A stretch of 32,000 nt of DNA from Coprobacillaceae bacterium. GTDB taxonomy: Bacteria; Bacillota_I; Bacilli_A; Erysipelotrichales; Coprobacillaceae. Each line of letters starts with the position of its first letter. Within the stretch, counting starts at the first letter, position 1. This document shows positions 1-13,796 of the stretch, piece after piece. Location of the stretch: assembly GCA_963675515.1 (NCBI GenBank), contig OY776328.1, positions 1,260,001-1,292,000 of the forward strand, given 5' to 3'. Below the pieces are notes generated by a model, which saw nothing but the letters and a program-made list of their open reading frames with translations, was not told the origin of the DNA and searched no databases. The position numbers and the translations under genes were made by a program.

Positions 1-2
1 AT

Positions 3-62
3 ATTGCTGGGATGGAAGCGTTAACTCTTATTTGTAGCTTTGCGGCTCTATTATTAGGGTAA
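3..62 (+). CDS. 3' end of an ORF entering from the left edge (...IAGMEALTLICSFAALLLG*). Possible C-terminus of a RiPP precursor or other small protein.
   Basis: Frame 3 is open from the window edge to TAA at 60-62. The tail is Gly/Ala/Leu-rich with one Cys. It lies directly upstream of a hairpin and of the RRE-radical SAM gene. Only 19 codons are visible. Confidence 0.25.
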   Translation: MAGMEALTLICSFAALLLG

Positions 63-81
63 TGAAAATCTAGCTTTTCCT

Positions 82-127
82 AAATAACGATAGAGAGTAT
101 TTAAATAGCTGCTTTCTATCGTTATTT
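82..127 (+). terminator. Hairpin between the edge ORF and the radical SAM gene. Candidate terminator or attenuator.
   Basis: The 13-nt arm AAATAACGATAGA (82-94) pairs perfectly with TCTATCGTTATTT (115-127) across a 20-nt loop. The T residues lie in the 3' arm rather than in a separate tail, so it is not a textbook terminator. Confidence 0.4.
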
Positions 128-259
128 CATGTATGCAATAGGATAGTTAAGGGAATAATCAATAGTAACACAAATTTACAGTACGATTGCGAAAATAAAT
201 ATAAAAATTGGTGAATATGATATTTATTAATATAATATATTAAAATAGAGGGAGTATAT

Positions 260-1570
260 ATGGATAATTATATTTGCTTAAGAGACAAAAGCTACCTAAA
301 AAGAAAACCTATCGGTATGTATTTTTCGGCAGTCAACAATGACGTCAGAGTCGAAGTTGGATTAAACGAGAGTGCGGAATCAATTATAAGCTGTTTAACT
401 GGGGAAATGAGAATACATGACATAGTGGTCAAATTAGCTGAAAAATTTAACGATAGTCATGAGAAAGTTGATAAAATAGTGCGTGAATTTATTGATGTAC
501 TTGATGTCAGCAATCAGCTAGAATATTTTAGTTCTCCTATTTTTAGAAAAGTTTTAGTTAAAGGTAGTGAAGAATATTATGTTCCAGAGGTAGCAGTGTT
601 AGAGTTGACACACAACTGCCCTTTAAAATGCAAACATTGTTATTTGGATGCGGGGATAGGTCCTAGTATGGATAGGTTGAAATTACTTGAGTTAATTAAT
701 ACTTTTTCTGAATACGGTGTCCAGTGTATTCAATTGACTGGTGGGGAACCCTTCTTATACCCGTTTATTGAAGAAATAATTGACTTGTTGATACTTGAAA
801 ATATTAAAATACAAATAACTACGAGTGGTTTTATTTTTAACGAAAAAGTGTCTAGAATACTTGATAAAATTTCCAATAGAGGAAGTTTGGTTCAAATTAG
901 TATTGATGGATTGGAAAATAGTCATAATAAGATACGTGGGAATGACAAGGCGTATGAAAAAGCCCTGTACTTTCTTAATGAGTGCTCCTTAAGGAAAATT
1001 ACAACCGTTGCTGCCACATGTGTTGTCAGTCAGGAATTTGAGGAAATAGAGCTTTTAACTATTAAACTTAAAAAAATGGGGGTATCATTACATAGGATAG
1101 GCCGTATATCGGATCAAGGGAGGGCTAAATCCAATAATATTTCATCGCAAATGTCGGGTGACCTTCTGAACAATTTAATAGATACTTTGAAAAACAAATA
1201 CAATGATGACAGTTATAGAATCGGAGGTTTTGAAGATATTGATTGTGAGAAAGAATACAATTGTGGAGCGGGCTATAATTTAATAAATATTTCCCCGACA
1301 TTTAAAATTTCTCCTTGTCCGATGATGAATATTTGTATAGGTAATCTTGCTGAGGAAGATTTTGAGAGTGTTATCAGGCGAAATAGTTCAGTTTTTGTGA
1401 ACTTAAGACGACCATTCGATGATATATGTAAAGGTTGTGAACGTGAATATGATTGTAAAAATTGTATTGCTGAGGCGTATACTAATAAAGATGGGGTTAA
1501 TCATTGTGGGTGGTATAATGACGAATTTAAAAGTGTAGAAAAAGAATTCAGTTCGAGTTTTAATAATTGA
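260..1570 (+). CDS. Radical SAM/SPASM peptide-modifying enzyme with an N-terminal PqqD-like RiPP recognition element (RRE)
   Basis: CPLKCKHC is a CxxxCxxC radical SAM cluster motif, and QLTGGEPF is the GGE SAM-binding motif. The C-terminal SPASM pattern is CEKEYNCGAG...ISPCP...CKGCEREYDCKNC. N-terminal residues of about 30-90 (VEVGLNESAESIISCLTGEMRIHDIVVKLAEKF...VREFIDVLDVSNQLEY) have the PqqD/RRE layout. The RBS GAGGGAG sits 5 nt before the ATG. Confidence 0.9.
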   Translation: MDNYICLRDKSYLKRKPIGMYFSAVNNDVRVEVGLNESAESIISCLTGEMRIHDIVVKLAEKFNDSHEKVDKIVREFIDVLDVSNQLEYFSSPIFRKVLVKGSEEYYVPEVAVLELTHNCPLKCKHCYLDAGIGPSMDRLKLLELINTFSEYGVQCIQLTGGEPFLYPFIEEIIDLLILENIKIQITTSGFIFNEKVSRILDKISNRGSLVQISIDGLENSHNKIRGNDKAYEKALYFLNECSLRKITTVAATCVVSQEFEEIELLTIKLKKMGVSLHRIGRISDQGRAKSNNISSQMSGDLLNNLIDTLKNKYNDDSYRIGGFEDIDCEKEYNCGAGYNLINISPTFKISPCPMMNICIGNLAEEDFESVIRRNSSVFVNLRRPFDDICKGCEREYDCKNCIAEAYTNKDGVNHCGWYNDEFKSVEKEFSSSFNN

Positions 1571-1679
1571 ATTATTTTTTCCTTTTTATGTATTTCTATC
1601 ATTTCAAGAGGCTGTTTTTGTGATCGCTATTAGATTAAATAAGTTTATTTGAAGGGATTGTACAAGTTAGGAGATTATT

Positions 1680-2396
1680 ATGATTAAATTAAATAATATA
1701 GAATTTAGTTACGGTAGGAATGTGGTATTAAGTGATTTTTCTTTGGAAATCCCAAAGAAAAATGTAGTAAGTATTTTGGGACATAATGGTGCGGGTAAGA
1801 CAACAATTGCAAAGTTGATAGCAGGATCACTATTGCCAGGGAAGGGAAGTGTGTATAATGGAATTGAACCTAAAAACATATTCTTTTTCTCGAACAAAGG
1901 AAATGTATACGCCAACATGTCTCTAGAAGAAAACATTAAATTTCTAAGAATGTTGAAAGGAATAAACAGAGATGACACAATAATCAATGAAAGAGTCGGG
2001 TACTATTTAAAAAGATTCAAGATGAATAAGCATTATGGGAAGAAAATATTAGAATTGTCTTCAGGCCTTAGGACTAGAGCAATCCTGATTTCTGGATTAA
2101 TTTTCGACCCAGATATGTTGCTGCTGGATGAGCCTACGAATACGGTTGATCCGTATACAAAGAAATTGATTGCTGAACTGTTGAATGAACTTTCTAATCA
2201 GGATAAGCTAATTATACTAATAACACATGATTTGGATTTTTGCTACGAAGTAAGTAAAGTAAATATTATCATAGATAATGGTCAACTTCTTAGAATGGAG
2301 GAAATCGATAAAGAGTGTGAAAGTATAATTGCATTCAAGGAAAAATATTTACACTATACTGAGGGGGGCTTGAATGATGAAAGCTGTAATATATAG
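1680..2396 (+). CDS. ABC transporter ATP-binding protein
   Basis: Walker A is GHNGAGKTT, the signature motif is LSSGLRTR, Walker B is LLLDEP and the H-loop is ITHD. An AGGAG RBS lies upstream. Confidence 0.9.
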   Translation: MIKLNNIEFSYGRNVVLSDFSLEIPKKNVVSILGHNGAGKTTIAKLIAGSLLPGKGSVYNGIEPKNIFFFSNKGNVYANMSLEENIKFLRMLKGINRDDTIINERVGYYLKRFKMNKHYGKKILELSSGLRTRAILISGLIFDPDMLLLDEPTNTVDPYTKKLIAELLNELSNQDKLIILITHDLDFCYEVSKVNIIIDNGQLLRMEEIDKECESIIAFKEKYLHYTEGGLNDESCNI

Positions 2397-3030
2397 AGAC
2401 TTAATGTGTTTGAAAAGCCAAATTAAAAACTTTTTTTGGTGTTTCATACTGATTTTCATGCCTCCTATGTTGATTAAATATAGGGAAGTAGCTGTTCTCA
2501 ACTATGATATTGTTTTTATTGTAATGAGTGCACTCACTCCAGCAGTGATTGGGATGCAATTCTTAAGTAGCATTTTAATCGAGGATAAGCAAAATGATAT
2601 CATGCCTATAATATTTAGAAATGATATTAGTGTTTTGAAGTATTTTACTTCCAAGACAATTGTCCCTTTTATAGTTTCGATTATGTATATGGTGTTATCC
2701 CTTGTGATTTATCAATTGTTTTTTCCTGTTATCATGTTCTCAAAATATAATATTCTTGAAATAGTTGAGCTATACGGTATCTACTTGATACTTACGTTTG
2801 TGGTTCTAATACTTGAAGAATTAATTGTTTTCATAGTGAAAAACGATGCCTATTTACCAACTGTAAGTATTTTTTCTGCATTGGCATTAATATTCGGAGT
2901 TTTCTATTTTATTAATCCTCTTCAAAATTTATTAATTTTTATTTTTGTAATGTCATTTGTGTCAATATTTATTTTATTTATAATTTCTTATATTTTAAAA
3001 AATAAATACGCAAATATAAAAATAATTTAG
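2374..3030 (+). CDS. Polytopic membrane protein, probably the ABC-2-type permease partner
   Basis: 218 aa, about 6 hydrophobic segments. Its start overlaps the stop of the ATPase gene, indicating translational coupling. Confidence 0.7.
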   Translation: MMKAVIYRDLMCLKSQIKNFFWCFILIFMPPMLIKYREVAVLNYDIVFIVMSALTPAVIGMQFLSSILIEDKQNDIMPIIFRNDISVLKYFTSKTIVPFIVSIMYMVLSLVIYQLFFPVIMFSKYNILEIVELYGIYLILTFVVLILEELIVFIVKNDAYLPTVSIFSALALIFGVFYFINPLQNLLIFIFVMSFVSIFILFIISYILKNKYANIKII

Positions 3031-3038
3031 AGGTCAAT

Positions 3039-4169
3039 ATGTTTAAAATTGATCAAGAATATCACGAATATAACATGAAATATAGCGAGATGAAGTTAGT
3101 CTTTTGGGAATCAAATGAAAAAGGTATAAAAATAATTGATGGAAACAATATGAAGAGCTTCGGATCGAATATTTCCAGTAGAAGAGAAAACAGAACTGCG
3201 ATAAACCTTTTATTACAGGAAAGATTCCAATTAGAAAAGGAACTGATAAATATTGATAAGCGATTAAGAAAAGGCGGACACACATTGCTTATATATATTA
3301 AAATACGTACAGAATTTATAGATGCAAATACAATTTCCGACAATAGAGAGTATAATTATTTAAGGGTTGTGGTTAGAGGGGATAGCAAAAATCCTATTAC
3401 TTATGAGAAGCATCTTGATAATTTTTGCTATATTAATATAATACAAAATATTAATTCTTTTCTTAAACAAGAAATATTTTATAAGAAGTTTAATATGAGT
3501 GATAAAATTAACTATAAAAATTATAAATTGACTTTTGCGCCAAAAGCTGCTGGTGTATTTGTTCACGAGGCTATAGGGCACATGATTGAAGAAGATATAT
3601 TTCAATATGTCGAGAATAATTTGAGAGAAATAAATTTTCCTAATTCATTTACACTTTGTGATGATCCAACTGGTTATGAAAAAATGGTAGGAATTAATAA
3701 GATAGATGATTTTGGAACACCTGTTAAAGCTGTAAAATTAATTGTAAATGGTAAAATAGAGAATATCATATCATTAGATAATGGGTTTGCTAGATCTGGA
3801 AAATATGATGAGTTGCCGATTCCAAGAATGAGAATGCTTTGTATTGAATCACCTTTGGAAGTAGTAGAAGATATTAATGATTTGATAATTACCAGCATAG
3901 ATTATGGGCAAGTTACCCCAGGTAATTTAAGATTCGAGTTAAATGGGAGAGGATATTTTAGATCGAAAACAGAAGGTTTTCACTATTTGGATGCCATTAG
4001 AATTAAAGGCAATATTAAGGATTCAATTGAAAGTCTAAAGATTATTGGTCGGGATAAGGAGGTTTTTGTAGCGGATTGTGTAAAAAAAGGCCAGCTTGTT
4101 AGGGTTGGTATGAAGTCTCCTTCAATGTCCATTATTTGTGAATCTGTTGAGGGGGATTTGTATGAATAA
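3039..4169 (+). CDS. TldD/PmbA-family metalloprotease (TldD-like, with a metal-binding motif)
   Basis: VHEAIGHMIEED matches the HExxxH...E/D motif of TldD. The C-terminal ...VRVGMKSPSMSI... tail is typical of the family. At 376 aa it is shorter than the canonical length of about 480 aa. Confidence 0.75.
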   Translation: MFKIDQEYHEYNMKYSEMKLVFWESNEKGIKIIDGNNMKSFGSNISSRRENRTAINLLLQERFQLEKELINIDKRLRKGGHTLLIYIKIRTEFIDANTISDNREYNYLRVVVRGDSKNPITYEKHLDNFCYINIIQNINSFLKQEIFYKKFNMSDKINYKNYKLTFAPKAAGVFVHEAIGHMIEEDIFQYVENNLREINFPNSFTLCDDPTGYEKMVGINKIDDFGTPVKAVKLIVNGKIENIISLDNGFARSGKYDELPIPRMRMLCIESPLEVVEDINDLIITSIDYGQVTPGNLRFELNGRGYFRSKTEGFHYLDAIRIKGNIKDSIESLKIIGRDKEVFVADCVKKGQLVRVGMKSPSMSIICESVEGDLYE

Positions 4170-5127
4170 CAAAGTCGGATTAATATACGATACTATTATT
4201 TATAGGATTGTCAACGGTGTCATTAGTAATGAAAAGAAAGTCTTCATGTTAAATTGTAATGATAATCCGCGATATTATTCGAATCAAGAAAGCAGAAAAT
4301 TTGAATCTTGGGCAAAACACAATATTGATTTACTTTTTAATTCATCTAATGAAGAACTAAAAAATTATAATTTCGAGATATCTTGGAGATATAAAAGAAA
4401 ATATATACTTGATAGTTCTTATGAATACGAAAAAGTTTCTAAAGTAATCAATGTGTTCAATAAAATTAATTATTCTTTTAATTCTATTATTGATTTCAAT
4501 GAAGACTATTGTATATTGTCGGACCTTGAATTTGAATCCGAAAGATCTACTAGGGTTACTGAAGTGACTGCAGATCAATTTATTAATGGAATTTTGTGGA
4601 GCAAAAACGATGTTGCAACTCTCATAAAAAAGTTCCTTCAATCAATTTATTTTGAAAATATAATAGGTAATAAATCGATTTATTCTATAGACCAAATCGA
4701 TAAAAGAATATTTAATAAATATGTTTCTATTAGTATTTTACCTACAGAACCATGGGATGATCAGGGATATCCTCAAGAATTTGCTACTTTGATTCATCAT
4801 GGAGTATTAAAAAAGTTGTTATGTTTAAATATTAATATCCCTATTGATGACCGCTTCGTCGGGGGGTATGTAGAAATTGATCACTTACGAAGAAGTAACA
4901 TTTCAATTGGCGAAATAAAATTTGACACAAGAGAAATTGAAGATGATACATATTTGAAATCATTGGGTTTTCACATTTGTTCTATTGAAGTAATTGAGGG
5001 GAATATAGTACAAATAATTTCTAGAAATAATGAAAACAAGCGAGTTCAGTTTTATGAGAGAGTTGAGAATATTATAAATTCACTGGTATATAATCGCTCA
5101 TCACATAGTTATTATTTTATTAAGTGA
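4162..5127 (+). CDS. TldE/PmbA-like partner subunit (no HExxxH motif). Assigned from position and pairing only.
   Basis: The start was moved to ATG 4162 because the RBS GAGGGGG lies at 4149-4155. This ATG overlaps the last codons of the TldD-like gene (stop at 4167-4169). The size is similar and there is no metal motif, as in TldE of TldD/TldE heterodimers. Direct sequence recognition is weak. Confidence 0.5.
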   Translation: MNNKVGLIYDTIIYRIVNGVISNEKKVFMLNCNDNPRYYSNQESRKFESWAKHNIDLLFNSSNEELKNYNFEISWRYKRKYILDSSYEYEKVSKVINVFNKINYSFNSIIDFNEDYCILSDLEFESERSTRVTEVTADQFINGILWSKNDVATLIKKFLQSIYFENIIGNKSIYSIDQIDKRIFNKYVSISILPTEPWDDQGYPQEFATLIHHGVLKKLLCLNINIPIDDRFVGGYVEIDHLRRSNISIGEIKFDTREIEDDTYLKSLGFHICSIEVIEGNIVQIISRNNENKRVQFYERVENIINSLVYNRSSHSYYFIK

Positions 5128-5227
5128 CAGATGGGTTATAAAGTTATATTTTTATATTTGATGGAGGTTCTGGTTACTGACGGTTATATTTATGTTGTGT
5201 ATATTTGTTAATATATTTTTAAGCAAG

Positions 5228-5261
5228 TCAGGTCGAAAATAAATGGGCCTGATTTTGTTTT
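5228..5261 (+). terminator. Rho-independent terminator closing the 260-5127 operon
   Basis: Stem TCAGGTC (5228-5234) pairs with GGCCTGA (5246-5252), 7 bp including one G-U pair. The loop is 11 nt and is followed by TTTTGTTTT. Confidence 0.6.
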
Positions 5262-5266
5262 AGTCT

Positions 5267-5599
5267 TTGCGAGATATGCAATGTAATGAGAGGATGGTGT
5301 GTTTATGGCGAAAATTCTTTAGTGGACATGAGGCAGCACGTCAGCTTTTGACTATGCTAAGGAAAAAGTATTGTTTTCGGGAAGGCGACAACTTTTGTGG
5401 AATTCAATACGTTGCGGATCTTCAAAAAGAACCGTATAGATCTATGCGGTTTTTCATTCATTGCTTAGGGGAAGAAAAGTCTGACCAATTGTTAGTGTTT
5501 GATATAAATACTTCCATCTTAAAGGTAAATCAATATATGAAATATCATTACGAGGATTTGATGACTATCTGGACATGGAAAATGATTTTTTATCTATAA
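5267..5599 (+). CDS. Hypothetical ORF of unknown function. The start is uncertain.
   Basis: Open frame of 110 codons lying between a terminator and the next promoter. No convincing RBS and no recognisable motif. It looks locally GC-richer than its neighbours by eye. Confidence 0.3.
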   Translation: MRDMQCNERMVCLWRKFFSGHEAARQLLTMLRKKYCFREGDNFCGIQYVADLQKEPYRSMRFFIHCLGEEKSDQLLVFDINTSILKVNQYMKYHYEDLMTIWTWKMIFYL

Positions 5600-5719
5600 T
5601 TGATTACTGAGATAAGAGATTAATGGGGAAGTGGCAATTTATAGCGTAATATATGGTTCTTTAATTCTTTGCATAAAAATTATATCGAGAAATGAATATT
5701 TCAATAATTGTCCCGTATA

Positions 5720-5748
5720 TTGACATTTTGTCCCAGGGAAAGTATAAT
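5720..5748 (+). promoter_or_regulatory. Consensus sigma-A promoter for the ATPase/protease pair
   Basis: TTGACA (5720-5725), exactly 17 nt of spacer, then TATAAT (5743-5748). The RBS AGAGGTG is at 5754-5760 and the ATG at 5767. A TTGTCCC direct repeat (5708-5714 and 5728-5734) flanks the -35 box. Confidence 0.65.
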
Positions 5749-5766
5749 TTGTTAGAGGTGTAATTT

Positions 5767-6807
5767 ATGAAAAAAAAGAATGTTTTGAACTTAATTAAAT
5801 ATTATATGGAAAGTAATGATGATGCTTTTAGAAATGAAGCTTATGAAATAGCGAAATATTTTGATGAAGCAAAAGAGTATCAACTGTCAGAGTATATAAT
5901 GGCCCTATTATCCGACACAAACACTTTTTCCCCGCAAACTTTTCAAAATGATTATAGATTTTTAAAACGTTTGGATATTAATTCTGAATCGCTACCACTA
6001 CCCGAAAAAATAAATGATAGCATTTTTGGAATAGTGAACGCGATTGGAAGAAATTTAGGAATTAATAAATTTTTGTTTGAAGGTCCGCCCGGAACGGGGA
6101 AAACCGAGTCGGCAAAACAAATAGCAAGGATTGTTGATAGAGAATTATATATAGTTAACTTTGATTTAATAGTAGATAGTAAGCTAGGTCAAACTTCAAA
6201 GAATATTTCCGCCTTATTTGATGAGATTAATAACGTTCCACAGCCTGAAAAGATTCTAGTTTTATTCGATGAACTTGATGCAATTGCCATAGATAGATTG
6301 AATCCTAATGATCTACGAGAAATGGGTAGAGCGACATCTTCCGTCTTAAAAGGTCTGGATAATATGAATAATAATGTTGTATTGATTGCGACTACAAATT
6401 TGTATGGTTCCTTTGATAAAGCGCTAATCAGAAGATTTGATGCGGTGATTGATTTTGGTGTTTATACTAGGGAAGATCTATTAGAAATAGCGGAAATAAT
6501 ACTAAATGATATGTTAATCAAATTCAAATCCACAGGAAGAAATATTAGATTGTTCAGAAAAATCATTGACAATATGGAAAACGTACCCTATCCAGGTGAT
6601 TTGAAAAATATGATCAAGACGTCTTTAGCTTTTAGTGATCCTACAAATGAATACGATTATTTGAACCGTTTGTATACACTTGTATATAAAAATAAGCCTG
6701 AGTCAGACTTGATTCTTTTAAAAAAACAGGGGTTTACGGTTCGTGAAATAGAGATACTTACCGGGATTTCTAAAAGTCAAGTTTCGAGAGAGGTGAGGGG
6801 GATATAG
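5767..6807 (+). CDS. ietA: Classical AAA+ ATPase (IetA-like) with a C-terminal helix-turn-helix-like tail
   Basis: Walker A is FEGPPGTGKTE and Walker B is LVLFDELDA. The sensor and second region of homology are TTN...ALIRRFD. The last roughly 30 aa (GFTVREIEILTGISKSQVSREV) look like an HTH. The gene is paired with an S8 protease gene 2 nt downstream. Confidence 0.75.
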   Translation: MKKKNVLNLIKYYMESNDDAFRNEAYEIAKYFDEAKEYQLSEYIMALLSDTNTFSPQTFQNDYRFLKRLDINSESLPLPEKINDSIFGIVNAIGRNLGINKFLFEGPPGTGKTESAKQIARIVDRELYIVNFDLIVDSKLGQTSKNISALFDEINNVPQPEKILVLFDELDAIAIDRLNPNDLREMGRATSSVLKGLDNMNNNVVLIATTNLYGSFDKALIRRFDAVIDFGVYTREDLLEIAEIILNDMLIKFKSTGRNIRLFRKIIDNMENVPYPGDLKNMIKTSLAFSDPTNEYDYLNRLYTLVYKNKPESDLILLKKQGFTVREIEILTGISKSQVSREVRGI

Positions 6808-6809
6808 AA

Positions 6810-9035
6810 ATGAATGATACTTTACAATTAAAGGGTAGATTTCAGCAAGCAAAGTCTAAAAATGGCCCACAAATTCGTGATTTACCTGCAGGAGCTAAAG
6901 TGGACGTACAAAAGTTAGAATCATTAAAATTGGACTTGCTAGAAATGAGGAAATTTTGGGCAAAAAACGAATATATCCCTGATGCTCTAGTTAGTGTTTA
7001 TTACCGTAAGGTTGCAGCAAAAACTAATAGGATACAGGGGTTGCTATCAAAAGGATCATCCAAGCCATCTTTATCAGTAGTGGGCGCTAGATTTTCAGAT
7101 GATCCATCCCCAAAACATATTATAACGCACTATATTCCTTTAGATGTTATCGATGAGTCAATTTATTTTTTGGAAATATGTATAGATATTTTGAACAGGT
7201 ATTTTTCAGGTGTTATCAATCAGGTCACACTAAAAAATATAAATAAAAATAATATAAAATTTGATGACAGGAAAATAAAAAAAACTAAGTTCGCTAAAAT
7301 AATAGTCGATTCTTATTATGTTGAAAAAATGGATGTATTAGTTGATCAATTACAAAACGAGGAAGAATCCATTATCACAATATTCGATACCGGTGAGAAA
7401 ACAATTGAACTGATGAATAAAATCGGTTTAAGGCTCAATCACATGCGCATTATTGATGAGACCACCTTACTTCTAAGACCAGACGAGTTAAGTTTGCTTA
7501 GGCAAAAAGCTCCATATTTAATATCTATGGCCGTAATAGATATCACACAAATACCTAAAGATGACTTCCAATTCCAACAACAGAATAAAATTACTATACC
7601 AATGCCGGTAAACGAACCTACAATAGGTGTTATTGACACGATGTTCGATGATAGTGTTTATTTCTCCGATTGGGTTGAGTTTGAAAACATGTTATCTGAA
7701 GAAATACCGCTATCACCAAAAGACTACAATCATGGAACTGCGGTATCTTCAATTATTGTTGATGGGCCTACTTTTAATCCGAACTATGATGATGGATGCG
7801 GGAGGTTTAGAGTAAAGCATTTTGGTGTTGCTGCTGGTGATAAATTTAGTTCCTTTACAATATTGAGAAGTATAAATGAGATTATCACTTCCAACAAAAA
7901 TATTACGGTATGGAACCTATCTTTAGGTTCCATACTAGAAATAAATAGAAACTTTATTTCTCCTGAAGCAGCGATATTAGATAAAATACAATACGAAAAT
8001 GACGTCATTTTTATTATCGCTGGTACTAATAAAGCGAAAACGGATGAAGAGGAAAAGTACATAGGGGCGCCCGCAGATTCAATAAATGGTTTGGTCGTAA
8101 ATTCTGTGGACAGTAATGGAAAGCCGGCATCATATTCAAGAAACGGGCCGGTGCTGTCTTTTTTTACCAAACCCGATGTTAGCTATTATGGTGGTACGAG
8201 CGGTGATTTGATGCGGGTATGTACCCCAACAGGTGAGGCTTTTGTAGGGGGGACCTCTTATGCTGCACCTTGGATTTCTAGAAAAATGTCATATTTGATT
8301 GATGTTCTAGGATTTAGCAGAGAGGTTGCAAAAGCAATTTTGATCCATTCTGCAACGGGATGGGAGATACAAGAGATTCCTTCAACGTTGATAGGTCATG
8401 GTGTTGTACCGATAAATATAAATGACATAGTTCAAAGTCCAAATGATGAGATCCAGTTTATTTTATCTGGTGTGTCTGAAAAATATGATACCTTTAATTA
8501 TGACATTCCCGTGCCAATCGATAAAAATAAACATCCTTATATTGTGAAAGCTACTCTATGCTATTTTCCTTGTTGTTCCAGAAATCAGGGTGTTGATTAT
8601 ACAAATACAGAATTGGATTTGCAATTAGGGAGACTGTATAGTAAAGGCATTAATCCAATTAATAATAATTTTCAAAGCTCTGATACTGGTATATATACCT
8701 GGGAAGAGGATGCTAGAAAATTATTTAGAAAATGGGATAACGTTAAACATATCAGAGAAATATATTCAGGTCAAAATAAGCCCAGAAAAGTATATGAGAA
8801 TTTTCAAGGAATCTGGGGAATCAGCTTAAAAACTAAAGAAAGATTAGATGAAAAATTTGGTCTAGGTTTAAGATTTGGTATTGTGGTTACCCTCAAGGAG
8901 ATTAATGGAGTAAATAGAATAGATGAATTTGTTAAAAGCTGCATGTTACATAGATGGATAGTAAATACAATAGATATAGAAAATAGAGTTGAAATATATA
9001 ATATAGCTGAGGAAGAAATTGAATTCGATGAGTAG
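6810..9035 (+). CDS. ietS: S8 subtilisin-family serine peptidase (IetS-like) with an N-terminal region of about 270 aa of unknown function
   Basis: Catalytic Asp in GVIDTMFD, His in YNHGTAVSS, oxyanion Asn in WNLSLGS and Ser in GGTSYAAPW. It is tightly coupled to the upstream AAA+ gene. Confidence 0.8.
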   Translation: MNDTLQLKGRFQQAKSKNGPQIRDLPAGAKVDVQKLESLKLDLLEMRKFWAKNEYIPDALVSVYYRKVAAKTNRIQGLLSKGSSKPSLSVVGARFSDDPSPKHIITHYIPLDVIDESIYFLEICIDILNRYFSGVINQVTLKNINKNNIKFDDRKIKKTKFAKIIVDSYYVEKMDVLVDQLQNEEESIITIFDTGEKTIELMNKIGLRLNHMRIIDETTLLLRPDELSLLRQKAPYLISMAVIDITQIPKDDFQFQQQNKITIPMPVNEPTIGVIDTMFDDSVYFSDWVEFENMLSEEIPLSPKDYNHGTAVSSIIVDGPTFNPNYDDGCGRFRVKHFGVAAGDKFSSFTILRSINEIITSNKNITVWNLSLGSILEINRNFISPEAAILDKIQYENDVIFIIAGTNKAKTDEEEKYIGAPADSINGLVVNSVDSNGKPASYSRNGPVLSFFTKPDVSYYGGTSGDLMRVCTPTGEAFVGGTSYAAPWISRKMSYLIDVLGFSREVAKAILIHSATGWEIQEIPSTLIGHGVVPININDIVQSPNDEIQFILSGVSEKYDTFNYDIPVPIDKNKHPYIVKATLCYFPCCSRNQGVDYTNTELDLQLGRLYSKGINPINNNFQSSDTGIYTWEEDARKLFRKWDNVKHIREIYSGQNKPRKVYENFQGIWGISLKTKERLDEKFGLGLRFGIVVTLKEINGVNRIDEFVKSCMLHRWIVNTIDIENRVEIYNIAEEEIEFDE

Positions 9036-9333
9036 AAATCGACTCATTTCCGAATTTTTGATATCTAACTTCACTAAAATTATTCTTAAAAAATATTTAC
9101 AAATTTGATTTGTTACATCTGAACTCGCAATCAGTTTATCTAAAATTTATTTGGTAGGAAAAGTCTAGTGGTAAAAATACCATCATGGACATTTTATGGT
9201 GGTAAAAAAACTTTCAAATTTTCATATTTTTATAAATTAGAATACAGTTGTAATCTTGGCGATCATTTTGGATCAAAAAGTAAAATTGAATATTCAAAGG
9301 GTTTCGAACGAGAATATTTAGGGGGTATGAGAT

Positions 9334-9603
9334 TTGAAAACGCGATTATTTATAATTGGGAATGGTTTTGATTTAGCACATCAACTGCCAACTAATTATA
9401 ACCCGGATTTTAAGATGATTGCAGAGAAAAATGAGCCTTTAGCTTATTTTTGGGATATTTACCAGTCAAGCAACGCTGATATTTGGTCGGATTTTGAAAA
9501 TTTGCTTGGCTATCCTGATTTCAATAATTTGGAAGAAATATTTGAGGGTTTCTCCCCAGATTGGTCATCTGACTTTGAAAGTGATAGAAATTCCATTATT
9601 TTT
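9334..9603 (+). pseudogene. abiH: abiH-like abortive infection gene, N-terminal fragment
   Basis: TTG start 8 nt after the RBS AGGGGG. The N-terminus MKTRLFIIGNGFDLAHQLPTNYNPDF carries the hallmark IIGNGFDLAH motif of the AbiH family. The frame runs into the left inverted repeat of an IS at 9604, and the apparent stop at 9610-9612 is IS sequence. Confidence 0.8.
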
Positions 9604-9659
9604 CTTAATTAACCACCAAATACATCCTTAAATTTAATAATGATTTACAAACCGTTTCT

Positions 9660-10807
9660 ACGGCTATGTTAGCCCATAAAGATGTTTATCGACTTTTCCT
9701 GTGAAATTAGGTGTATAATGAAGAAGAGGTGGGATAACCATGGAATTAGAAAAAATCAAGAATGAACTGGATACTTTAAACAGCGATGATTTAAGCGCCC
9801 TAATTGTTTTCATTCAGGACCGTCAACTTCTAAATGATTACACCAACATCCTTGTGGATGCATTAGAAGCCAAACACAACGACTCAATTTCGTGCCCTCG
9901 TTGCGGTCAACATCATATTAAAAGAGATGGCCACTACAAAAATAGTACGCAACGGTATAGATGCATTGATTGCGGTAAAACTTTCACTCCATATGTTGGT
10001 ACAATTTTGGAGAACACCAAACTTTCCTATATAACCTGGCTTAAGTATCTGATAATAATGAGCCATGACGAAGATTTGAGGGACTGTGCCAAATATGCAG
10101 GAGTGTCGTTAAAATGCAGTTTTTTCATGCGCCATAAAATATTGAATGCCCTAGCTCACAGGATGGAAAACATTGAGCTTAGCGGTATTGTGGAATTAGA
10201 TGAAATGAGCGTAAACATCAGTTATTCCGGGAATCACAGTAAGCAGGCAGAAAAACCATTACCCAGGAAGCCTTATAAAAGAGGACGAAAAGGTAACCGC
10301 AGAGACAAGAAAGATCAAAATATAACCGACGCCGTACAAATAGCAAGCGCCGTTGACAGGAACGGTCGTATATTACTCAAGGTCGCTAAGATTGGATCGA
10401 CAACGCTGGACAATGAGACGACAACCGCTGTATATTTGAAGCATCTTCAAAAAGCAACAACGCTGTGTACGGATGGATTATTCGTATATCGAAGATTAAG
10501 CGAAAGCTTACAAATTGAACACTATGCTTTTCCAGCAAAAAGTAAAGCAAAACGAGGAATCTACCACATAAATCACGTCAACTACGTGCATTCTCAAATT
10601 GAAAAGTATATGAAAAAACACAATGGGATATCTTCAAAATACCTCAATGAATACCTGGCTTATATCGCATACATGATTGAAACAAGAGCTAGAGACGTCC
10701 ATGATTATTTTGTTGATATTTATCAGTGCCATTGTGATTTCAGGCGAGAAAATTATATTGGAACAGGCTTCATCTATGAAAGCATAGCTTTGGGTTAACA
10801 TAGCCGT
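9660..10807 (+). mobile_element. IS1595-family element (called IS-A here), copy 1 of a head-to-tail dimer
   Basis: The 16-bp terminal inverted repeats ACGGCTATGTTAGCCC and GGGTTAACATAGCCGT match at 15/16 positions. The repeat period to copy 2 is 1152 bp. Confidence 0.8.
9740..10798 (+). CDS. IS1595-family transposase (copy 1)
   Basis: N-terminal zinc ribbon CPRCG...CIDCGKTF. The DDE-type core contains VELDEMSV...LCTDGL...HINHVNYVHSQIEKYMKK...YLNEYLAY. The stop codon lies inside the right inverted repeat. Confidence 0.9.
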   Translation: MELEKIKNELDTLNSDDLSALIVFIQDRQLLNDYTNILVDALEAKHNDSISCPRCGQHHIKRDGHYKNSTQRYRCIDCGKTFTPYVGTILENTKLSYITWLKYLIIMSHDEDLRDCAKYAGVSLKCSFFMRHKILNALAHRMENIELSGIVELDEMSVNISYSGNHSKQAEKPLPRKPYKRGRKGNRRDKKDQNITDAVQIASAVDRNGRILLKVAKIGSTTLDNETTTAVYLKHLQKATTLCTDGLFVYRRLSESLQIEHYAFPAKSKAKRGIYHINHVNYVHSQIEKYMKKHNGISSKYLNEYLAYIAYMIETRARDVHDYFVDIYQCHCDFRRENYIGTGFIYESIALG

Positions 10808-10811
10808 TTCT

Positions 10812-11959
10812 ACGGCTATGTTAGCCCATAAAGATGTTTATCGACTTTTCCTGTGAAATTAGGTGTATAATGAAGAAGAGGTGGGATAACCATGGAATTA
10901 GAAAAAATCAAGAATGAACTGGATACTTTAAACAGCGATGATTTAAGCGCCCTAATTGTTTTCATTCAGGACCGTCAACTTCTAAATGATTACACCAACA
11001 TCCTTGTGGATGCATTAGAAGCCAAACACAACGATTCAATTTCGTGCCCTCGTTGCGGTCAACATCATATTAAAAGAGATGGCCACTACAAAAATAGTAC
11101 GCAACGGTATAGATGCATTGATTGCGGTAAAACTTTCACTCCATATGTTGGTACAATTTTGGAGAACACCAAACTTTCCTATATAACCTGGCTTAAGTAT
11201 CTGATAATAATGAGCCATGACGAAGATTTGAGGGACTGTGCCAAATATGCAGGAGTGTCGTTAAAATGCAGTTTTTTCATGCGCCATAAAATATTGAATG
11301 CCCTAGCTCACAGGATGGAAAACATTGAGCTTAGCGGTATTGTGGAATTAGATGAAATGAGCGTAAACATCAGTTATTCCGGGAATCACAGTAAGCAGGC
11401 AGAAAAACCATTACCCAGGAAGCCTTATAAAAGAGGACGAAAAGGTAACCGCAGAGACAAGAAAGATCAAAATATAACCGACGCCGTACAAATAGCAAGC
11501 GCCGTTGACAGGAACGGTCGTATATTACTCAAGGTCGCTAAGATTGGATCGACAACGCTGGACAATGAGACGACAACCGCTGTATATTTGAAGCATCTTC
11601 AAAAAGCAACAACGCTGTGTACGGATGGATTATTCGTATATCGAAGATTAAGCGAAAGCTTACAAATTGAACACTATGCTTTTCCAGCAAAAAGTAAAGC
11701 AAAACGAGGAATCTACCACATAAATCACGTCAATTACGTGCATTCTCAAATTGAAAAGTATATGAAAAAACACAATGGGATATCTTCTAAATACCTCAAT
11801 GAATACCTGGCTTATATCGCATACATGATTGAAACAAGAGCTAGAGACGTCCATGATTATTTTGTTGATATTTATCAGTGCCATTGTGATTTCAGGCGAG
11901 AAAATTATATTGGAACAGGCTTCATCTATGAAAGCATAGCTTTGGGTTAACATAGCCGT
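10812..11959 (+). mobile_element. IS-A, copy 2 of the head-to-tail dimer
   Basis: Same ends as copy 1. It differs from copy 1 at only three positions that I found: 9883C/11035T, 10582C/11734T and 10636A/11788T. Confidence 0.8.
10892..11950 (+). CDS. IS1595-family transposase (copy 2)
   Basis: The 352-aa product is identical to that of copy 1. The three nucleotide differences are all synonymous. Confidence 0.9.
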   Translation: MELEKIKNELDTLNSDDLSALIVFIQDRQLLNDYTNILVDALEAKHNDSISCPRCGQHHIKRDGHYKNSTQRYRCIDCGKTFTPYVGTILENTKLSYITWLKYLIIMSHDEDLRDCAKYAGVSLKCSFFMRHKILNALAHRMENIELSGIVELDEMSVNISYSGNHSKQAEKPLPRKPYKRGRKGNRRDKKDQNITDAVQIASAVDRNGRILLKVAKIGSTTLDNETTTAVYLKHLQKATTLCTDGLFVYRRLSESLQIEHYAFPAKSKAKRGIYHINHVNYVHSQIEKYMKKHNGISSKYLNEYLAYIAYMIETRARDVHDYFVDIYQCHCDFRRENYIGTGFIYESIALG

Positions 11960-12035
11960 TTCTACGCCTTCTAAATCTTAGGTTTTTAGTGATGCTTTTC
12001 CTAACCTTTGGTATGATAATAACGAGGTGATATCA

Positions 12036-13007
12036 ATGGGAAACAAACTAAAACCAAAGAAAGATTCTTTAATAACTCTTACTAGAAAATATGCTAATGA
12101 CAATGATGAATGTGTCAAGTTCTTCTTCACTATCAAGTGGCCTGAAGGGTTCTTCTGTGAAAAGTGCGGTTGCACGCATTTCTACTTCATTGAAAGTAGA
12201 AAAGCTTACCAATGCAAGGAATGCAAACATCAGCATTATTTGCTTGCTGGCACCATATTCCAGGATACCAAACTTGAACTTTACAAACTGATCTTGGGTA
12301 TGTATATTTTCTTTACTGCTAATAAAGGTGTATCAGCAATAGAACTTGCAAGTGAACTAGACGTTAATTACAAAACAGCTTTACTTCTTGCCAGAAAATG
12401 TCGCATTTTGATGGCTCAAAGCTGTAGTGAAAAGATGCTGGATAGCATGTTTTATGAAGCTGACGTCGCATATATTGGATCTAAGAGCAAAGAGAAGAAT
12501 CGTCAAGGTTGTGCTACAGAGCAACAGCCTTTTTTTGTTGTTCTTTCGACGGATGCAGAAAACAAATACCCAAAATATATCAAACTTCACCCCATCCCCA
12601 CCGACAATCAAGTCTAGGTAGGAAGTGTCATCTCGAAAAGCATCAAACTGTCCCAGGATCGAAAACTGAATACCGATGGTAAAACCACATTTAACTCAAT
12701 TGAGGATGAGATTGATCTATGTAAGGAAAAGATCCTGTATAAAGAGGATGATCATCGCCTGTATTGGATTAACACCCTGATTGGTGATATCAAAAACAAT
12801 ATCACCGGAATATATCATGGCGTAGCAAAACGGGATCTGCCCTTATTCCTAAATGAGCAGGAGTGGCGCTTCAACCACCGGAATACAGGTGCTTATTTCA
12901 TGGACAAGATAAGAAAATATCTGCTTCTTTCATCGCCGATGCCAAGAAGAAAAATCATAACGGTTCTCAACTTAGCAGAATCTTATTTTTCAAGTACATG
13001 TATCTGA
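12036..13007 (+). pseudogene. IS-B transposase (IS1595 family) interrupted by an in-frame TAG
   Basis: ATG 12036 follows the RBS GAGGTG. The N-terminal zinc ribbon is WPEGFFCEKCGC...YQCKECKH. An in-frame TAG at 12615-12617 is followed, in the same frame, by 129 more sense codons. These end ...YHGVAKRDLPLFLNEQEWRFNHRNTG... (IS1595 C-terminal signature), with the stop at 13005-13007 inside the right inverted repeat. Confidence 0.8.
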
Positions 13008-13027
13008 TGGTTAATTAAGTTATTTTT

Positions 13028-13132
13028 CAAGTAGACATTAACGGCAATTTGCAAGAATCTTTGATTGAATTTGCGGAAAAGGCTGAAAAGGAAATTATTA
13101 ACACAACAGCTATTGATATTTACAAGAAATAT
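13028..13132 (+). pseudogene. abiH: abiH-like gene, middle fragment
   Basis: After conceptual excision of IS-B plus one target-duplication copy, the abiH frame continues without a stop for 35 codons (QVDINGNLQESLIEFAEKAEKEIINTTAIDIYKKY). It then hits TGA at 13133. Confidence 0.45.
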
Positions 13133-13241
13133 TGAATATCCAAGATAGTTTAATATTGCCGCTCCGCACAAGATGAGTGATGGTTCAATATATTTGCCAT
13201 CTTATTTACCTTCAAACTTTCTTGAGGTGTAAGATTTTAAA

Positions 13242-13284
13242 AGATACAGCCGATTGTTATTATTTGGCAGCTGTATCTTTTTTT
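13242..13284 (+). terminator. Rho-independent terminator inside the unresolved insertion block
   Basis: The 9-bp stem AGATACAGC (13242-13250) pairs with GCTGTATCT (13270-13278) and is followed by TTTTTT. It comes after a short gene-tail-like frame (...MSDGSIYLPSYLPSNFLEV*). Confidence 0.55.
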
Positions 13285-13376
13285 GCTATTATTAACTTAG
13301 AATATATCCTTTAGAAAGAAAAAAGATAGAAATCTCCCCAACCACAGTTTGATTTCTATCTGCTCATAAGAACAAT

Positions 13377-13796
13377 ATGATAATAATAAAAAATGGCGGA
13401 AAAATCAATCCCTTAAATCAAAAAAGTTATTCGGATGCTGTAAATTCTATAGATTATTCAACTATCCAATGCACCAATTGCCATCATAGCGAAGCCCGCT
13501 TCCAGGCACATTCCTACTACACTAGAAATGTGTCCTTTTTGGGGTTCAAAACCAAAATCAAGATACTACGGGTTATTTGCACCGTATGCCGCAAAACTCA
13601 TGCCATACTGGTGGAATCTATCGTTCCTTACTTCATTATCTCCAAGGAAGATATCGTAACGATCATAGCCAATAACGATCACCACGACTTCTCCTACATC
13701 TATTTTCTAAAACGTTTTTTCAAATCAATGACCGATTATGAACGAATCTGCGTCATCAAATCAAGAAGATGGCCATGTATCTTCATAACCACTTAA
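13377..13796 (+). CDS. Small zinc-ribbon protein, probably IS-associated (DUF6431-like, from memory)
   Basis: CTNCHH...CTVCRKTH cysteine pairs. The gene lies directly upstream of, and co-oriented with, the ISL3 transposase gene. No clear RBS. Confidence 0.45.
   Translation: MIIIKNGGKINPLNQKSYSDAVNSIDYSTIQCTNCHHSEARFQAHSYYTRNVSFLGFKTKIKILRVICTVCRKTHAILVESIVPYFIISKEDIVTIIANNDHHDFSYIYFLKRFFKSMTDYERICVIKSRRWPCIFITT

Follow-up and report, generated by a model that had tools for sequence, protein, structure and literature searches.

Known systems related to the operon

Plasmids of Clostridium botulinum carry a type of biosynthetic cluster that encodes the bacteriocin boticin. On pBOT3502, CBOP15-19 are described as devoted to making and secreting boticin, and CBOP16-17 are the part to which the boticin B region of strain 213B aligns (PMC2674064). 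The pBOT3502 set consists of a radical SAM gene, a 'bacteriocin' gene, two TldD-related genes and ABC genes. Our literature search found no description of peptide modification or of the role of TldD/E in boticin-type clusters, and no structural work on boticin B.

The subtilosin A cluster of Bacillus subtilis (sbo-alb) combines a short-leader, hydrophobic, anionic precursor that ends in Gly with an RRE-radical SAM-SPASM thioether synthase (AlbA), a two-gene ABC module and a paralogous metalloprotease-like pair of the M16 family (AlbE/AlbF). SkfB, the synthase of the sporulation killing factor (SKF), forms a Cys-to-C-alpha thioether and carries a single auxiliary cluster in a Twitch domain; the SKF gene cluster is without TldD/E.

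Escherichia coli TldD/TldE (M103), the leader peptidase of microcin B17 and klebsazolicin, is a housekeeping pair encoded apart from the biosynthetic gene cluster (BGC). Its trimming of microcin B17 is N-terminal and processive, halted by modifications (PMC10885120, PMC12707348), and reportedly needs ~15 free N-terminal residues (PMC10885120). Cluster-encoded TldD-type proteases have been described for pearlin/ammosamide and for biphenomycin, in the latter case beside a B12-radical SAM enzyme (PMC10885120, PMC12707348). The biphenomycin protease BipI, a single TldD that is self-sufficient and has no TldE partner, trims both peptide ends (PMC10885120, PMC12707348), and the B12-dependent radical SAM enzyme of that system works with an MNIO. 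Pearlin TldD/E act as carboxypeptidases on scaffold peptides.

A probable boticin-type operon at the window edge

The window analysed here is a stretch of 32,000 nucleotides, and we consider the operon at its left edge likely to direct biosynthesis of a boticin-type bacteriocin (RiPP); it lies in an island of low GC content that is riddled with IS elements. Its five ORFs and associated features are as follows.

3..62, + strand: precursor peptide gene 3' end, 19 codons (…IAGMEALTLICSFAALLLG) and a TAA stop in frame 3, cut by the window edge
82..127, + strand: stem-loop of 18 bp, after the precursor stop and before the radical SAM gene
260..1570, + strand: RRE(PqqD)-radical SAM-SPASM peptide maturase, 436 aa (Pfam PqqD and Radical_SAM, invariant Cys, fold)
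1680..2396, + strand: ABC transporter ATP-binding subunit, 238 aa (PF00005, 8.8e-20)
2374..3030, + strand: polytopic membrane permease (ABC-2-like), 218 aa, overlapping the ATPase gene by 23 nt
3039..4169, + strand: compact TldD-type metalloprotease subunit, catalytic, 376 aa (PF19289, invariant metal ligands)
4162..5127, + strand: TldE/PmbA-type non-catalytic partner, 321 aa from ATG, overlapping the TldD gene by 8 nt (PF19289)
5227..5262, + strand: probable intrinsic terminator of the operon, a GC-rich stem then UUUUGUUUU (-16 kcal/mol, z = -2.65)

Downstream of the precursor tail, the hairpin, radical SAM maturase, ABC ATPase, permease, TldD and TldE/PmbA follow in this order, all co-directional. 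The original prediction of a five-gene RiPP operon, in which an RRE-radical SAM-SPASM maturase is combined with an ABC transporter and a TldD/TldE pair of its own, was upheld. Its description of the genes as tightly packed fails at one junction, where 109 nt (1571-1679) separate the radical SAM gene from the ABC genes, and the terminator that it placed at the operon end does fold as a hairpin followed by a U-run, although a consensus terminator scan makes no call there.

The cluster architecture is already recognised, because C. botulinum pBOT3502 has the same gene set; the operon is thus a member of a known cluster kind that is biochemically uncharacterised as far as we found in the literature. 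The prediction knew of no characterised radical SAM RiPP pathway with a dedicated TldD/E pair and had named an earlier characterisation of this exact architecture as a finding that would count against it. The architecture proved to be known and annotated (pBOT3502 CBOP15-19; PMC2674064), and it is only for the biochemistry that the statement stands.

Boticin loci (pBOT3502, 213B, pTO08, pOsaka2020-2) share the same five functions and, like the window operon, are plasmid- or island-borne. They encode a PqqD-radical SAM enzyme (34% identity to that of the window) and a TldD-type protein (30% identity) whose metal ligands are unchanged, together with a second protein of TldD/PmbA type, an ABC transporter and a small peptide that starts M-[EQ]-[KR]-P, with both Cys aligned with the window family. 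In contrast, the peptide gene lies after the radical SAM gene in C. botulinum and before it in the window, a single fused 547-aa ABC protein corresponds to the separate ATPase and permease, the protease subunits are longer (395 and 407 aa versus 376 and 321) and the peptides carry a 15-17-residue hydrophilic C-terminal tail, which is missing from the window subfamily. The TldE-like proteins of the two are too diverged for BLAST. Elsewhere among related loci, the ABC ATPase gene is kept beside the cassette and is followed by the permease in L002, L006, L008, L009 and L091; the window permease is 35% identical to that of L001 and has a weak ABC2_membrane_4 match under cut-off (18.2 versus 27 bits).

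The precursor gene and its family

The original prediction saw an orphan operon with no visible precursor. We looked for a precursor ORF inside the operon and none is present there, but positions 3-62 are the 3' end of a precursor-family ORF, with complete homologues at that position in related loci, and the orphan label therefore fails; the fallback guess of a substrate gene upstream of the window was essentially right, with the edge cutting the gene. The gene has ~44 codons, starts outside the window and ends at position 62, 197 nt before the radical SAM gene. Searched with a 15-member precursor HMM, the tail was the best of 1254 six-frame window fragments, and its score is weak taken alone (7.8 bits, E 0.28), with just 19 precursor codons contained in the window. 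It aligned to the second invariant Cys column of the family, has a Cys at position -9 relative to the stop and a final Gly, both as in the closest precursor subfamily, and matches the complete precursors of related loci in position, strand and trailing hairpin.

Complete precursors of 40-55 aa occupy the equivalent position in >20 related loci from Bacilli, Clostridia, Erysipelotrichales and one actinobacterium. Their N terminus carries an M-x-K/E-P motif, two Cys are invariant, and the body of the peptide is very hydrophobic and for the most part anionic. Across these highly diverged peptides the two Cys are the sole invariant side chains, with the first at residue 12-14 and a spacing of 21-25 residues to the second; outside the Cys, conservation is highest in the M-x-K-P motif, within a conserved M-x-[KE]-P-[EK] segment. 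The C-terminal residue varies (G, A, F, I, V, L), with a conserved terminal Gly in the window's own subfamily. Held-out precursors were found by the HMM in pTO08 (2.5e-9), pOsaka2020-2 (4.3e-9) and L004 (8e-5).

Precursors are always accompanied by the same set of radical SAM, TldD, TldE and ABC genes, in six or more different arrangements and in loci that include the C. botulinum boticin plasmids. They adjoin the radical SAM gene in L001, L002, L005-L012, L015, L085/L086 and L090/L091; Bacillus cereus pb2 has three tandem copies beside it. The order in L091 (precursor, radical SAM, ABC, permease, TldD, TldE) is identical to that of the window, as is that of the intact cluster L006. In the reverse direction, two short TldD relatives from a full-library search both lay within the same cassette. 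A strong hairpin follows the last precursor gene in six related loci. Its counterpart in the window (-21.1 kcal/mol, z = -5.5; 0/200 shuffles fold equally well) is likely to act as an attenuating terminator or to stabilise the mRNA, setting the ratio of precursor to enzyme.

The radical SAM maturase

Of the parts ascribed to the first protein by the prediction, the PqqD domain (27.1 versus a Pfam cut-off of 23.4 bits), the Radical_SAM domain with its CxxxCxxC and GGE motifs and the C-terminal Cys were all recovered, while the Pfam SPASM model PF13186 gave no match at E <= 0.01, although Cys pattern and fold do fit. Invariant in an alignment of 21 homologues were C120/C124/C127, G161-G162-E163 and seven C-terminal Cys (C335, C353, C390, C393, C399, C402 and C416).

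The family profile matched SkfB (8e-42), CteB (3e-21) and PqqE (1e-17), with SkfB best by far (146.6 bits versus 78.7 for the next), and the AF2 model (pLDDT 91.3) had SkfB, SuiB and CteB as top full-length folds. A non-RiPP maturase family had been named as a possible refutation; instead, the closest solved relatives are peptide maturases, and we rejected a sulfatase or cofactor maturase identity on both profile and fold. CteB is now classed as a ranthipeptide synthase. The closest solved structure is SkfB (Foldseek 4e-24), but its match stops at residue 372, before the Cx2Cx5Cx2C block of the window maturase (390-402). The AlbA model matches residues 34-374, and its equivalog score (95.5 versus a cut-off of 850) shows that the window maturase is not an AlbA orthologue. 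As all curated NCBIfam maturase models, including that of SkfB (TIGR04403, 79.9 versus 300), score far under their cut-offs, function cannot be transferred from known maturases. The best partial NCBIfam match was NirJ2 (98 bits).

The TldD/TldE pair

The predicted pairing of an intact HEAIGHMIEED motif with a motif-less partner was confirmed on both counts. In the TldD-like protein, the motif (H176, E177, H181) is joined by a Cys ligand motif, CxKxGQ (C347), and H176, E177, G180, H181, E184 and C347 are invariant in alignments of 15 and of 42 homologues. The metal-site residues H176, E177, H181 and C347 align to E. coli TldD, which the family profile matches at 8e-41; the AF2 model (pLDDT 93.3) has TldD (5nj5_A) as best fold, with a TMq of 0.73 over ~450 alignment columns. 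A search of the full library of 1.84 billion proteins gave relatives in 76 representative clusters at E <= 1e-10, and the short TldD clade is small and specific to this cassette.

HExxxH is absent from the fifth protein, which matches PF19289 (27.3 bits versus a cut-off of 22). With a profile built from 13 homologues, E. coli PmbA is found at 1.9e-9 and TldD only at 0.006, and hhalign joins it to the TldD-like family with 95.8% probability. An alternative GTG start at 4138 would give 329 aa; the deposited protein (P0095) has 321 aa.

The window pair thus resembles E. coli TldD/TldE in its two-domain fold, in the HExxxH and Cys ligands of its metal site and in having a paralogous partner that is catalytically dead, but is cluster-dedicated, and only the C-terminal domain is detectable by sequence. 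The subunits are indeed short, as predicted: against a 495-residue PDB chain of E. coli TldD (tags included) and 450 residues for PmbA, each is ~100-130 residues shorter. BipI and the ammosamide/pearlin TldD/E are likewise dedicated proteases inside a RiPP BGC, but neither the biphenomycin nor the pearlin system has an RRE-SPASM maturase or the window's precursor family. The sbo-alb cluster resembles the operon in outline; its precursor is unrelated in sequence, its protease pair is M16 rather than M103, and the window system has no sign of the head-to-tail cyclisation of subtilosin A.

Proposed maturation and competing chemistry

We propose that the N-terminal RRE of the maturase would bind the M-x-[KE]-P-[EK] segment of the precursor, and that the radical SAM/SPASM core would link both invariant Cys to carbons of the backbone or of side chains. 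Sactionine-type thioethers seem most likely, and would make the peptide hairpin-like, hydrophobic and mostly anionic. The TldD/E heterodimer would then thread the free N terminus and trim until the first cross-link bars entry, and may also cut the C terminus in boticin-like members with long tails; the ABC ATPase and permease would serve product export, producer protection or both. The two invariant Cys could also pair as a disulfide, with the enzyme doing something else.

Some other chemistry within the same RiPP cluster, with the Cys in a disulfide or free rather than in Cys-S-to-C-alpha thioethers, is a tentative alternative that we consider unlikely. The structural neighbours CteB, SuiB (Lys-Trp C-C cross-link) and the epimerase EpeE/YydG would suggest ranthionine-type thioethers to C-beta or C-gamma, cross-linking through C-C or C-O bonds, or epimerisation, and the low NCBIfam maturase scores point the same way; the clear lead of the sactionine synthase SkfB and the restriction of invariant side chains to the two Cys argue for the thioether. 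Somewhat more doubtful is a TldD/E pair that is not a leader peptidase and might serve in C-terminal follower removal, in head-to-tail cyclisation, as suspected of AlbE/F in subtilosin, or in self-protective degradation. Because only 11-13 residues precede the first Cys, against the ~15 reported as a requirement of the E. coli enzyme, canonical 'pencil-sharpener' trimming may not apply. The hydrophilic tails of the C. botulinum members, the cutting at both ends by BipI and the terminal Gly that the window's subfamily has in common with the subtilosin A precursor are all consistent with a non-leader role, but no second peptidase is conserved in the cassette and the N-terminal M-x-K-P looks like a removable recognition segment. 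The varied C-terminal residue of the family argues against a common cyclisation step.

Genomic setting

The locus lies in an island of 29-33% GC, versus 44-48% at 27-30 kb of the window. Its neighbours are IS-damaged: nested IS elements interrupt an AbiH gene, IS3 splits a GntR-ABC module and IS1634 an ABC exporter; since the surrounding island is so heavily damaged, the locus could be silent. That the window copy is a decaying, non-functional remnant of a boticin-type cluster nevertheless strikes us as improbable. The low GC, the split neighbours, the occurrence of the window cluster as a singleton in the protein database and the absence from the window of two features found with its closest relatives, a small TM protein and agr-like quorum-sensing genes, would fit decay, but none of the five ORFs is truncated, no catalytic residue is lost, translational coupling is kept, hairpin and terminator are present, and the order is that of intact clusters L006 and L091.

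A boticin-type RiPP operon is also favoured over two non-RiPP readings, a maturase for cofactors or sulfatases accompanied by housekeeping TldD/E and an anti-phage system beside IetAS, either of which we regard as highly improbable. The NirJ2 match, pVip matches from PADLOC and the position of IetA/IetS directly 3' of the operon might suggest such a role; the NirJ2 and pVip matches, however, cover the generic radical SAM core only, far under cut-offs, and anSME ranks eleventh by fold with shorter coverage. The RRE domain of the maturase, the small Cys-containing peptide genes that adjoin in >20 loci and the one member annotated and published as a bacteriocin locus refute a non-RiPP function on sequence evidence, and the short TldD clade is cassette-specific. 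IetAS itself has its own perfect promoter past the terminator.

A divergent boticin-type operon

The five-gene operon of the window extends the boticin-type radical SAM/TldD–TldE bacteriocin clusters by a new and divergent member; all its ORFs run in one direction:

260–1570, + strand, radical SAM protein (436 aa)
1680–2396, + strand, ABC ATPase (238 aa)
2374–3030, + strand, permease (218 aa)
3039–4169, + strand, TldD-like protein (376 aa)
4162–5127, + strand, TldE-like protein (321 aa from ATG; 329 aa from an upstream GTG at 4138)

The operon is a real feature, and its domains had been called correctly; in Pfam, the second protein matches ABC_tran and the third has an ABC-2 membrane match below threshold. 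The genes follow one another closely except at the first junction: the radical SAM and ABC genes are 109 nt apart, the ABC and permease genes overlap by 23 nt, the permease and TldD genes are separated by 8 nt, and the TldD and TldE genes overlap by 8 nt, so the close packing described in the original prediction holds for the last three junctions only. The 8-nt overlap suggests that TldD and TldE may be co-translated. At ~5227–5262, a hairpin with a trailing U-run folds at −16 kcal/mol (z = −2.65) and is a plausible terminator, as had been proposed, but a consensus terminator scan does not list it. Between the TldE stop and this hairpin lies a 26-aa hydrophobic ORF (MGYKVIFLYLMEVLVTDGYIYVVYIC, 5131–5211) with no obvious Shine–Dalgarno sequence, which could be a chance reading frame or a mini membrane peptide.

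Plasmid tblastn with the radical SAM protein retrieved B. cereus plasmid pb2 and six C. botulinum plasmids. On one of the latter, pBOT3502, the annotation reads 'PqqD family peptide modification chaperone', 'bacteriocin' (MEKPKITNANMVACSGNPYAAIAMLGLACGADFAYCQMPSVSDLWGSGTAKAL), two copies of 'metallopeptidase TldD-related protein' and an ABC transporter; all five functions are present in the window, with what is very likely the peptide gene clipped by the window edge. These pBOT3502 genes, CBOP15–19, have been published as the boticin cluster, and in strain 213B the boticin B region matches CBOP16–17 at 52% identity (Carter et al., PMC2674064). The architecture had been taken as unprecedented; genome annotation and publications on C. 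botulinum therefore already recognise it. Bacteriocin activity of boticin B has been shown experimentally (PMC9611418).

Compared with the C. botulinum boticin proteins, the window radical SAM enzyme is 34% identical over 419 aa (1e-79) and the TldD-like protein 30% identical over 335 aa (7e-42), whereas the TldE-like protein is linked at the profile level only. Plasmid pTO08 carries a 50-aa ORF (MQKPEIISADLGLCAVNEFVALAAIPGGAATFAVCQMPNLDEIVSNAAYV) at the same place as the pBOT3502 bacteriocin gene. This ORF may be boticin B itself, since btcB is reported to have 50 codons; bacteriocin catalogues list boticin B as an unmodified peptide. No peptide modification, radical SAM role or TldD role in a boticin-type system was described in the literature found. 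The window is a divergent addition to a bacteriocin cluster type known since 2000–2007, and its general operon design would not surprise a specialist.

In outline, the operon most resembles the subtilosin sbo–alb operon, with an M103 pair in place of the M16 pair AlbE/F found in the sbo–alb layout. A defence-system reading was rejected on the PADLOC results, which consisted of generic radical SAM-core (pVip) and P-loop matches, with none for the permease, TldD or TldE.

Precursor peptides

The original prediction described an orphan operon without a visible precursor; instead, we found what is very likely the tail of a precursor-family peptide at 3–62 and complete precursors in related loci. 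In frame 3, window 3–62 reads …IAGMEALTLICSFAALLLG and then TAA; the ORF listing of the window leaves out ORFs that run past its edge. The tail comprises the C-terminal 19 residues only, including the second of two Cys invariant in the family, and lies on the same strand as the radical SAM gene, 197 nt upstream. Its terminal Gly and its Cys at position −9 relative to the stop are exactly as in the closest subfamily (for example, …LCSWAACIAG before the stop in the related locus L091), and an 18-bp hairpin follows at 82–127 (−21.1 kcal/mol, z = −5.5); in six relatives, too, the final precursor gene is followed by a hairpin. Although first of 1254 six-frame window fragments, the tail scores weakly against the precursor HMM (7.8 bits, E 0.28); strand and position, the Cys and Gly spacing and the trailing hairpin carry the assignment. 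Window 3–62 is very likely the 3' end of a precursor gene, which is not proven because the 5' half lies outside the window. For genome scanning, this means that a cluster can seem orphan when its precursor is cut by a window edge.

Complete candidates are widespread among the related loci. In locus L001, two tandem small genes directly before the radical SAM gene (encoding P0002) encode M(EENIM)EEAKMFKADLGVCAFQPELAVIGFTEGLAALTAICGAVAIVAG, and B. cereus pb2 has three identical precursor copies beside its radical SAM gene. ORFs of 40–55 aa adjoin the radical SAM gene in Paraclostridium benzoelyticum, P. dentum, Niallia sp. (two copies), Acidipropionibacterium (deposited as Propionibacterium) acidifaciens, a Clostridium plasmid, Erysipelotrichales, Eubacteriales, Lachnotalea, Bengtsoniella and Ca. 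Sediminicultor genomes, a Lactobacillales MAG and several metagenome contigs. When aligned, these peptides share an N-terminal segment M-x-[KE]-[PA]-[EK], an invariant Cys at residue 12–14 and a second invariant Cys 21–25 residues on; A/V/I/L/M/F/W/C/G make up 60–76% of residues and net charge is zero or negative, with one exception (Ca. Sediminicultor, +4). Across very diverged precursors, 11–13 residues (13 in most) precede the first invariant Cys, counted from Met1. Pfam and NCBIfam assigned the precursors to no family, while an HMM trained on 15 of the peptides recovered the held-out ones of pTO08 (2.5e-9), pOsaka2020-2 (4.3e-9) and locus L004 (8e-5).

The radical SAM protein

Pfam detects a PqqD domain (PF05402; 27.1 bits versus a cut-off of 23.4) and a Radical_SAM match in the first protein. 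C120/C124/C127 and G161-G162-E163 are invariant in 21 homologues, as are seven C-terminal Cys, including C390-x2-C393-x5-C399-x2-C402. The Pfam SPASM HMM gave no match to the window protein at E ≤ 0.01, and several of its homologues carry a precomputed SPASM match. The protein thus has the N-terminal RRE and the CxxxCxxC plus auxiliary-cluster Cys of sactisynthases, and its nearest retrievable relative is P0002 (57% identity).

The original prediction would have failed had the protein been a sulfatase or cofactor maturase. In the AlphaFold2 model (pLDDT 91.3), residues 1–90 form an N-terminal beta-strand and helix domain, and the best-matching folds are SkfB, SuiB and CteB over 430–460 columns, RRE included; anSME ranks eleventh, with ~370 columns. 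Likewise, the family profile searched against the PDB ranks SkfB best (8e-42), followed by CteB (3e-21) and PqqE (1e-17), with no anSME chains at E ≤ 1e-5. Together with the RRE domain and the adjacent peptide genes, these rankings rule out a sulfatase or cofactor maturase. Among curated equivalogs, the protein falls below the NCBIfam cut-offs (score/cut-off) of AlbA (NF012164, 95.5/850), SkfB (TIGR04403, 79.9/300), NirJ2 (TIGR04055, 98.4/500), PqqE (TIGR02109, 48.7/381) and mycofactocin (TIGR03962, 70.8/265) and, judged by these scores, is a member of none of the five. The results support a peptide cross-linking enzyme, most plausibly a thioether synthase; for a predicted product with Cys-S to C-alpha (sactionine) bridges, the support is the similarity to SkfB.

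Compact TldD and TldE proteins

PmbA_TldD_3rd (PF19289) matches both the fourth and the fifth protein, and in the TldD-like protein this third domain is the only one that Pfam detects. Nonetheless, H176, E177, G180, H181, E184 and C347 of the TldD-like protein are invariant in sets of 15 and 42 homologues, and H176/E177/H181/C347 align with the HExxxH and GxC metal-site motifs of E. coli TldD, which the family profile matches at 8e-41. The AlphaFold2 model (pLDDT 93.3) has 5nj5_A as its best Foldseek match (6.9e-21, TMq 0.73), with ~450 columns covering both domains. The intact metal site, which had been read correctly from the sequence, the profile match and the two-domain superposition together identify the fourth protein as a compact but complete TldD. 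Its partner was also rightly described as motif-less: no HExxxH is found in the fifth protein, and a 13-homologue profile matches E. coli PmbA (1.9e-9) better than TldD (0.006). Against the TldD-like family, the TldE-like protein aligns with 95.8% hhalign probability.

Word-indexed homologue searches with the two proteins gave almost no matches; relatives of TldD were collected by a full-library HMMER search and with profiles from locus translations. The HMMER search revealed a small clade of short TldDs (360–400 aa), of which 19 representative clusters fall within E ≤ 1e-30 and 76 within E ≤ 1e-10, while canonical TldDs (450–480 aa) match the query via the C-terminal domain only. The compact TldD/E clade appears to be specific to boticin-type clusters.

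Conservation of the cassette

Using tblastn with the window proteins, we found radical SAM, ABC and TldD-type genes together in related loci L001, L002, L004–L009, L011 and L012, and the same cassette also occurs on annotated plasmids and further contigs. It spans Bacilli, Clostridia, Erysipelotrichales and one actinobacterium, in at least six gene orders:

Gene orders of the cassette
Precursor, radical SAM, ABC, permease, TldD, TldE: window, L006, L091
ABC, permease, TldD, TldE, precursor(s), radical SAM: L001, L002, L083 (B. cereus pb2), L085
TldD, TldE, ABC, precursors, radical SAM: L007
ABC, permease, precursor, radical SAM, TldD, TldE: L008
Precursor, radical SAM, TldD, TldE, ABC: L005
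Radical SAM, precursor, TldD, TldE, ABC: C. botulinum plasmids

Linkage kept through shuffled order across distant taxa argues that the genes probably form one pathway. A reverse test agrees, as two short-clade TldDs picked from the HMMER search both lie inside the same cassette.

Several loci depart from or extend this pattern. Lactococcus ileimucosae (L003, 8001–9287) encodes a radical SAM homologue with 41% identity, with no precursor or TldD/E detected within 8 kb on either side, and may hold a degraded or differently organised cluster. After the cluster, L001 (9485–12197), L085 (8801–11526) and L084 (1677–3663) carry a LytTR response regulator, a histidine kinase, a 45-aa AgrD-like ORF and AgrB, and production in the closest relatives of the window is probably under quorum-sensing control. 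The closest relatives also encode a 57–61-aa TM protein (immunity-like) after the radical SAM gene. Neither the small TM protein nor the agr-like genes are found in the window, and they may lie upstream of it or have been lost. L085 and L086 adjoin a phage-type integrase.

Proposed maturation of boticin-like peptides

TldD-type proteases have precedents in peptide pathways. The housekeeping TldD/E of E. coli trims the microcin B17 leader processively until heterocycles block it and is reported to need ~15 free residues to reach the active site, and pearlin and ammosamide clusters encode TldD-type proteases (PMC10885120). BipI of the biphenomycin cluster works alone, cuts both ends and adjoins a B12-radical SAM enzyme and an MNIO (PMC12707348). 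In the literature found, only the biphenomycin papers and a protease review tied TldD/E to a SPASM or sactipeptide pathway.

From gene content, homology, linkage, intact catalytic residues and precursor features, we infer a route in which the RRE would bind the conserved N-terminal precursor segment, the radical SAM enzyme would make thioethers at the two invariant Cys, TldD/E would shorten the N-terminus as far as the first cross-link, where trimming would stop, and the ABC module would export the peptide and/or confer immunity. The 11–13 residues before the first Cys are close to the free-tail length reported to limit E. coli TldD/E, and the distance from Met1 to this Cys may be a ruler, either for the protease or for the RRE-maturase. 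With the first Cys at residue 12–14 and a reported need of ~15 free residues in the E. coli enzyme, there are three readings: the compact TldD/E may have a shorter reach than the E. coli pair; it may make a single cut or act elsewhere than at the N-terminus; or the fixed spacing may instead reflect the distance from RRE to active site within the maturase.

Our wider proposal, which we hold tentatively and at rather less than an even chance, is that boticin-like peptides, boticin B included, form a distinct phylum-spanning RiPP class. In it, the two invariant Cys would be cross-linked by an RRE-radical SAM-SPASM enzyme, maturation would fall to a dedicated TldD/E heterodimer of miniature size, and the strictly conserved 11–13-residue tail (13 in most) before the first Cys would be the ruler of this protease. 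If true, it would make this TldD/E pair the first to have co-evolved with a radical SAM peptide pathway. The comparative set, with ~20 precursors that share the two invariant Cys and an N-terminal stretch of fixed length, the compact TldD/E clade and at least six gene orders, makes both the peptide chemistry and the role of TldD/E directly testable, and a TldD/E acting as a short-range "pencil sharpener" would be a possible leader-removal tool.

Genomic context

The operon lies within a horizontally acquired island: GC is 29–33% over the operon and IetAS (window 1–9000) versus 44–48% at housekeeping genes (27000–30000). The remaining features of the window are:

5720–5748, perfect TTGACA-17-TATAAT promoter before IetA
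5767–6807, IetA (AAA ATPase)
6810–9035, IetS (S8 peptidase)
9334–9612, N-part of AbiH (profile 1–82)
16591–17172, C-part of AbiH (profile 140–259)
18796–22378, GntR regulator, PmtA-like ABC ATPase and ABC2_membrane_5 permease module
20170–21746, minus strand, IS3 insert in this module
22649–23350, TMD of an ABC exporter (MsbA/bacteriocin-exporter type)
23498–25102, IS1634 transposase
25166–26101, remainder of the exporter
26471–26555, minus strand, tRNA-Leu(CAG)
28786–29349, GNAT/FeeM-like (housekeeping region)
29365–29994, PlsY (housekeeping region)
30157–30468, YbjQ (housekeeping region)
30569–31958, group II intron (Rfam D1–D4 match, 30569–30747)
From 31203, intron reverse transcriptase/maturase ORF, which may run beyond the window end

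The anti-phage pair IetA and IetS, which comes next downstream, is unrelated to the operon. The operon is intact despite neighbours split by insertion sequences. AbiH (9334–17172) is interrupted by ~7 kb of nested mobile elements, comprising two IS1595 copies, a truncated third copy, a DUF6431 ORF, ISL3 and IS3; a repeat of at least 300 nt is identical in the two tandem IS1595 copies, which start 1152 nt apart and have equal transposase scores. The ABC exporter (22649–26101) is split by IS1634, and insertion sequences of the window show 80% identity to Enterococcus IS3 copies, a loose pointer to Lactobacillales. Loci L083 (B. cereus pb2, 8836–10719) and L087 carry the GntR-ABC-ABC2 module directly behind the radical SAM gene, at 41% and 34% identity. 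In L090 a GntR-ABC pair stands ahead of the cluster, and the module may be an accessory immunity module of boticin-type clusters.
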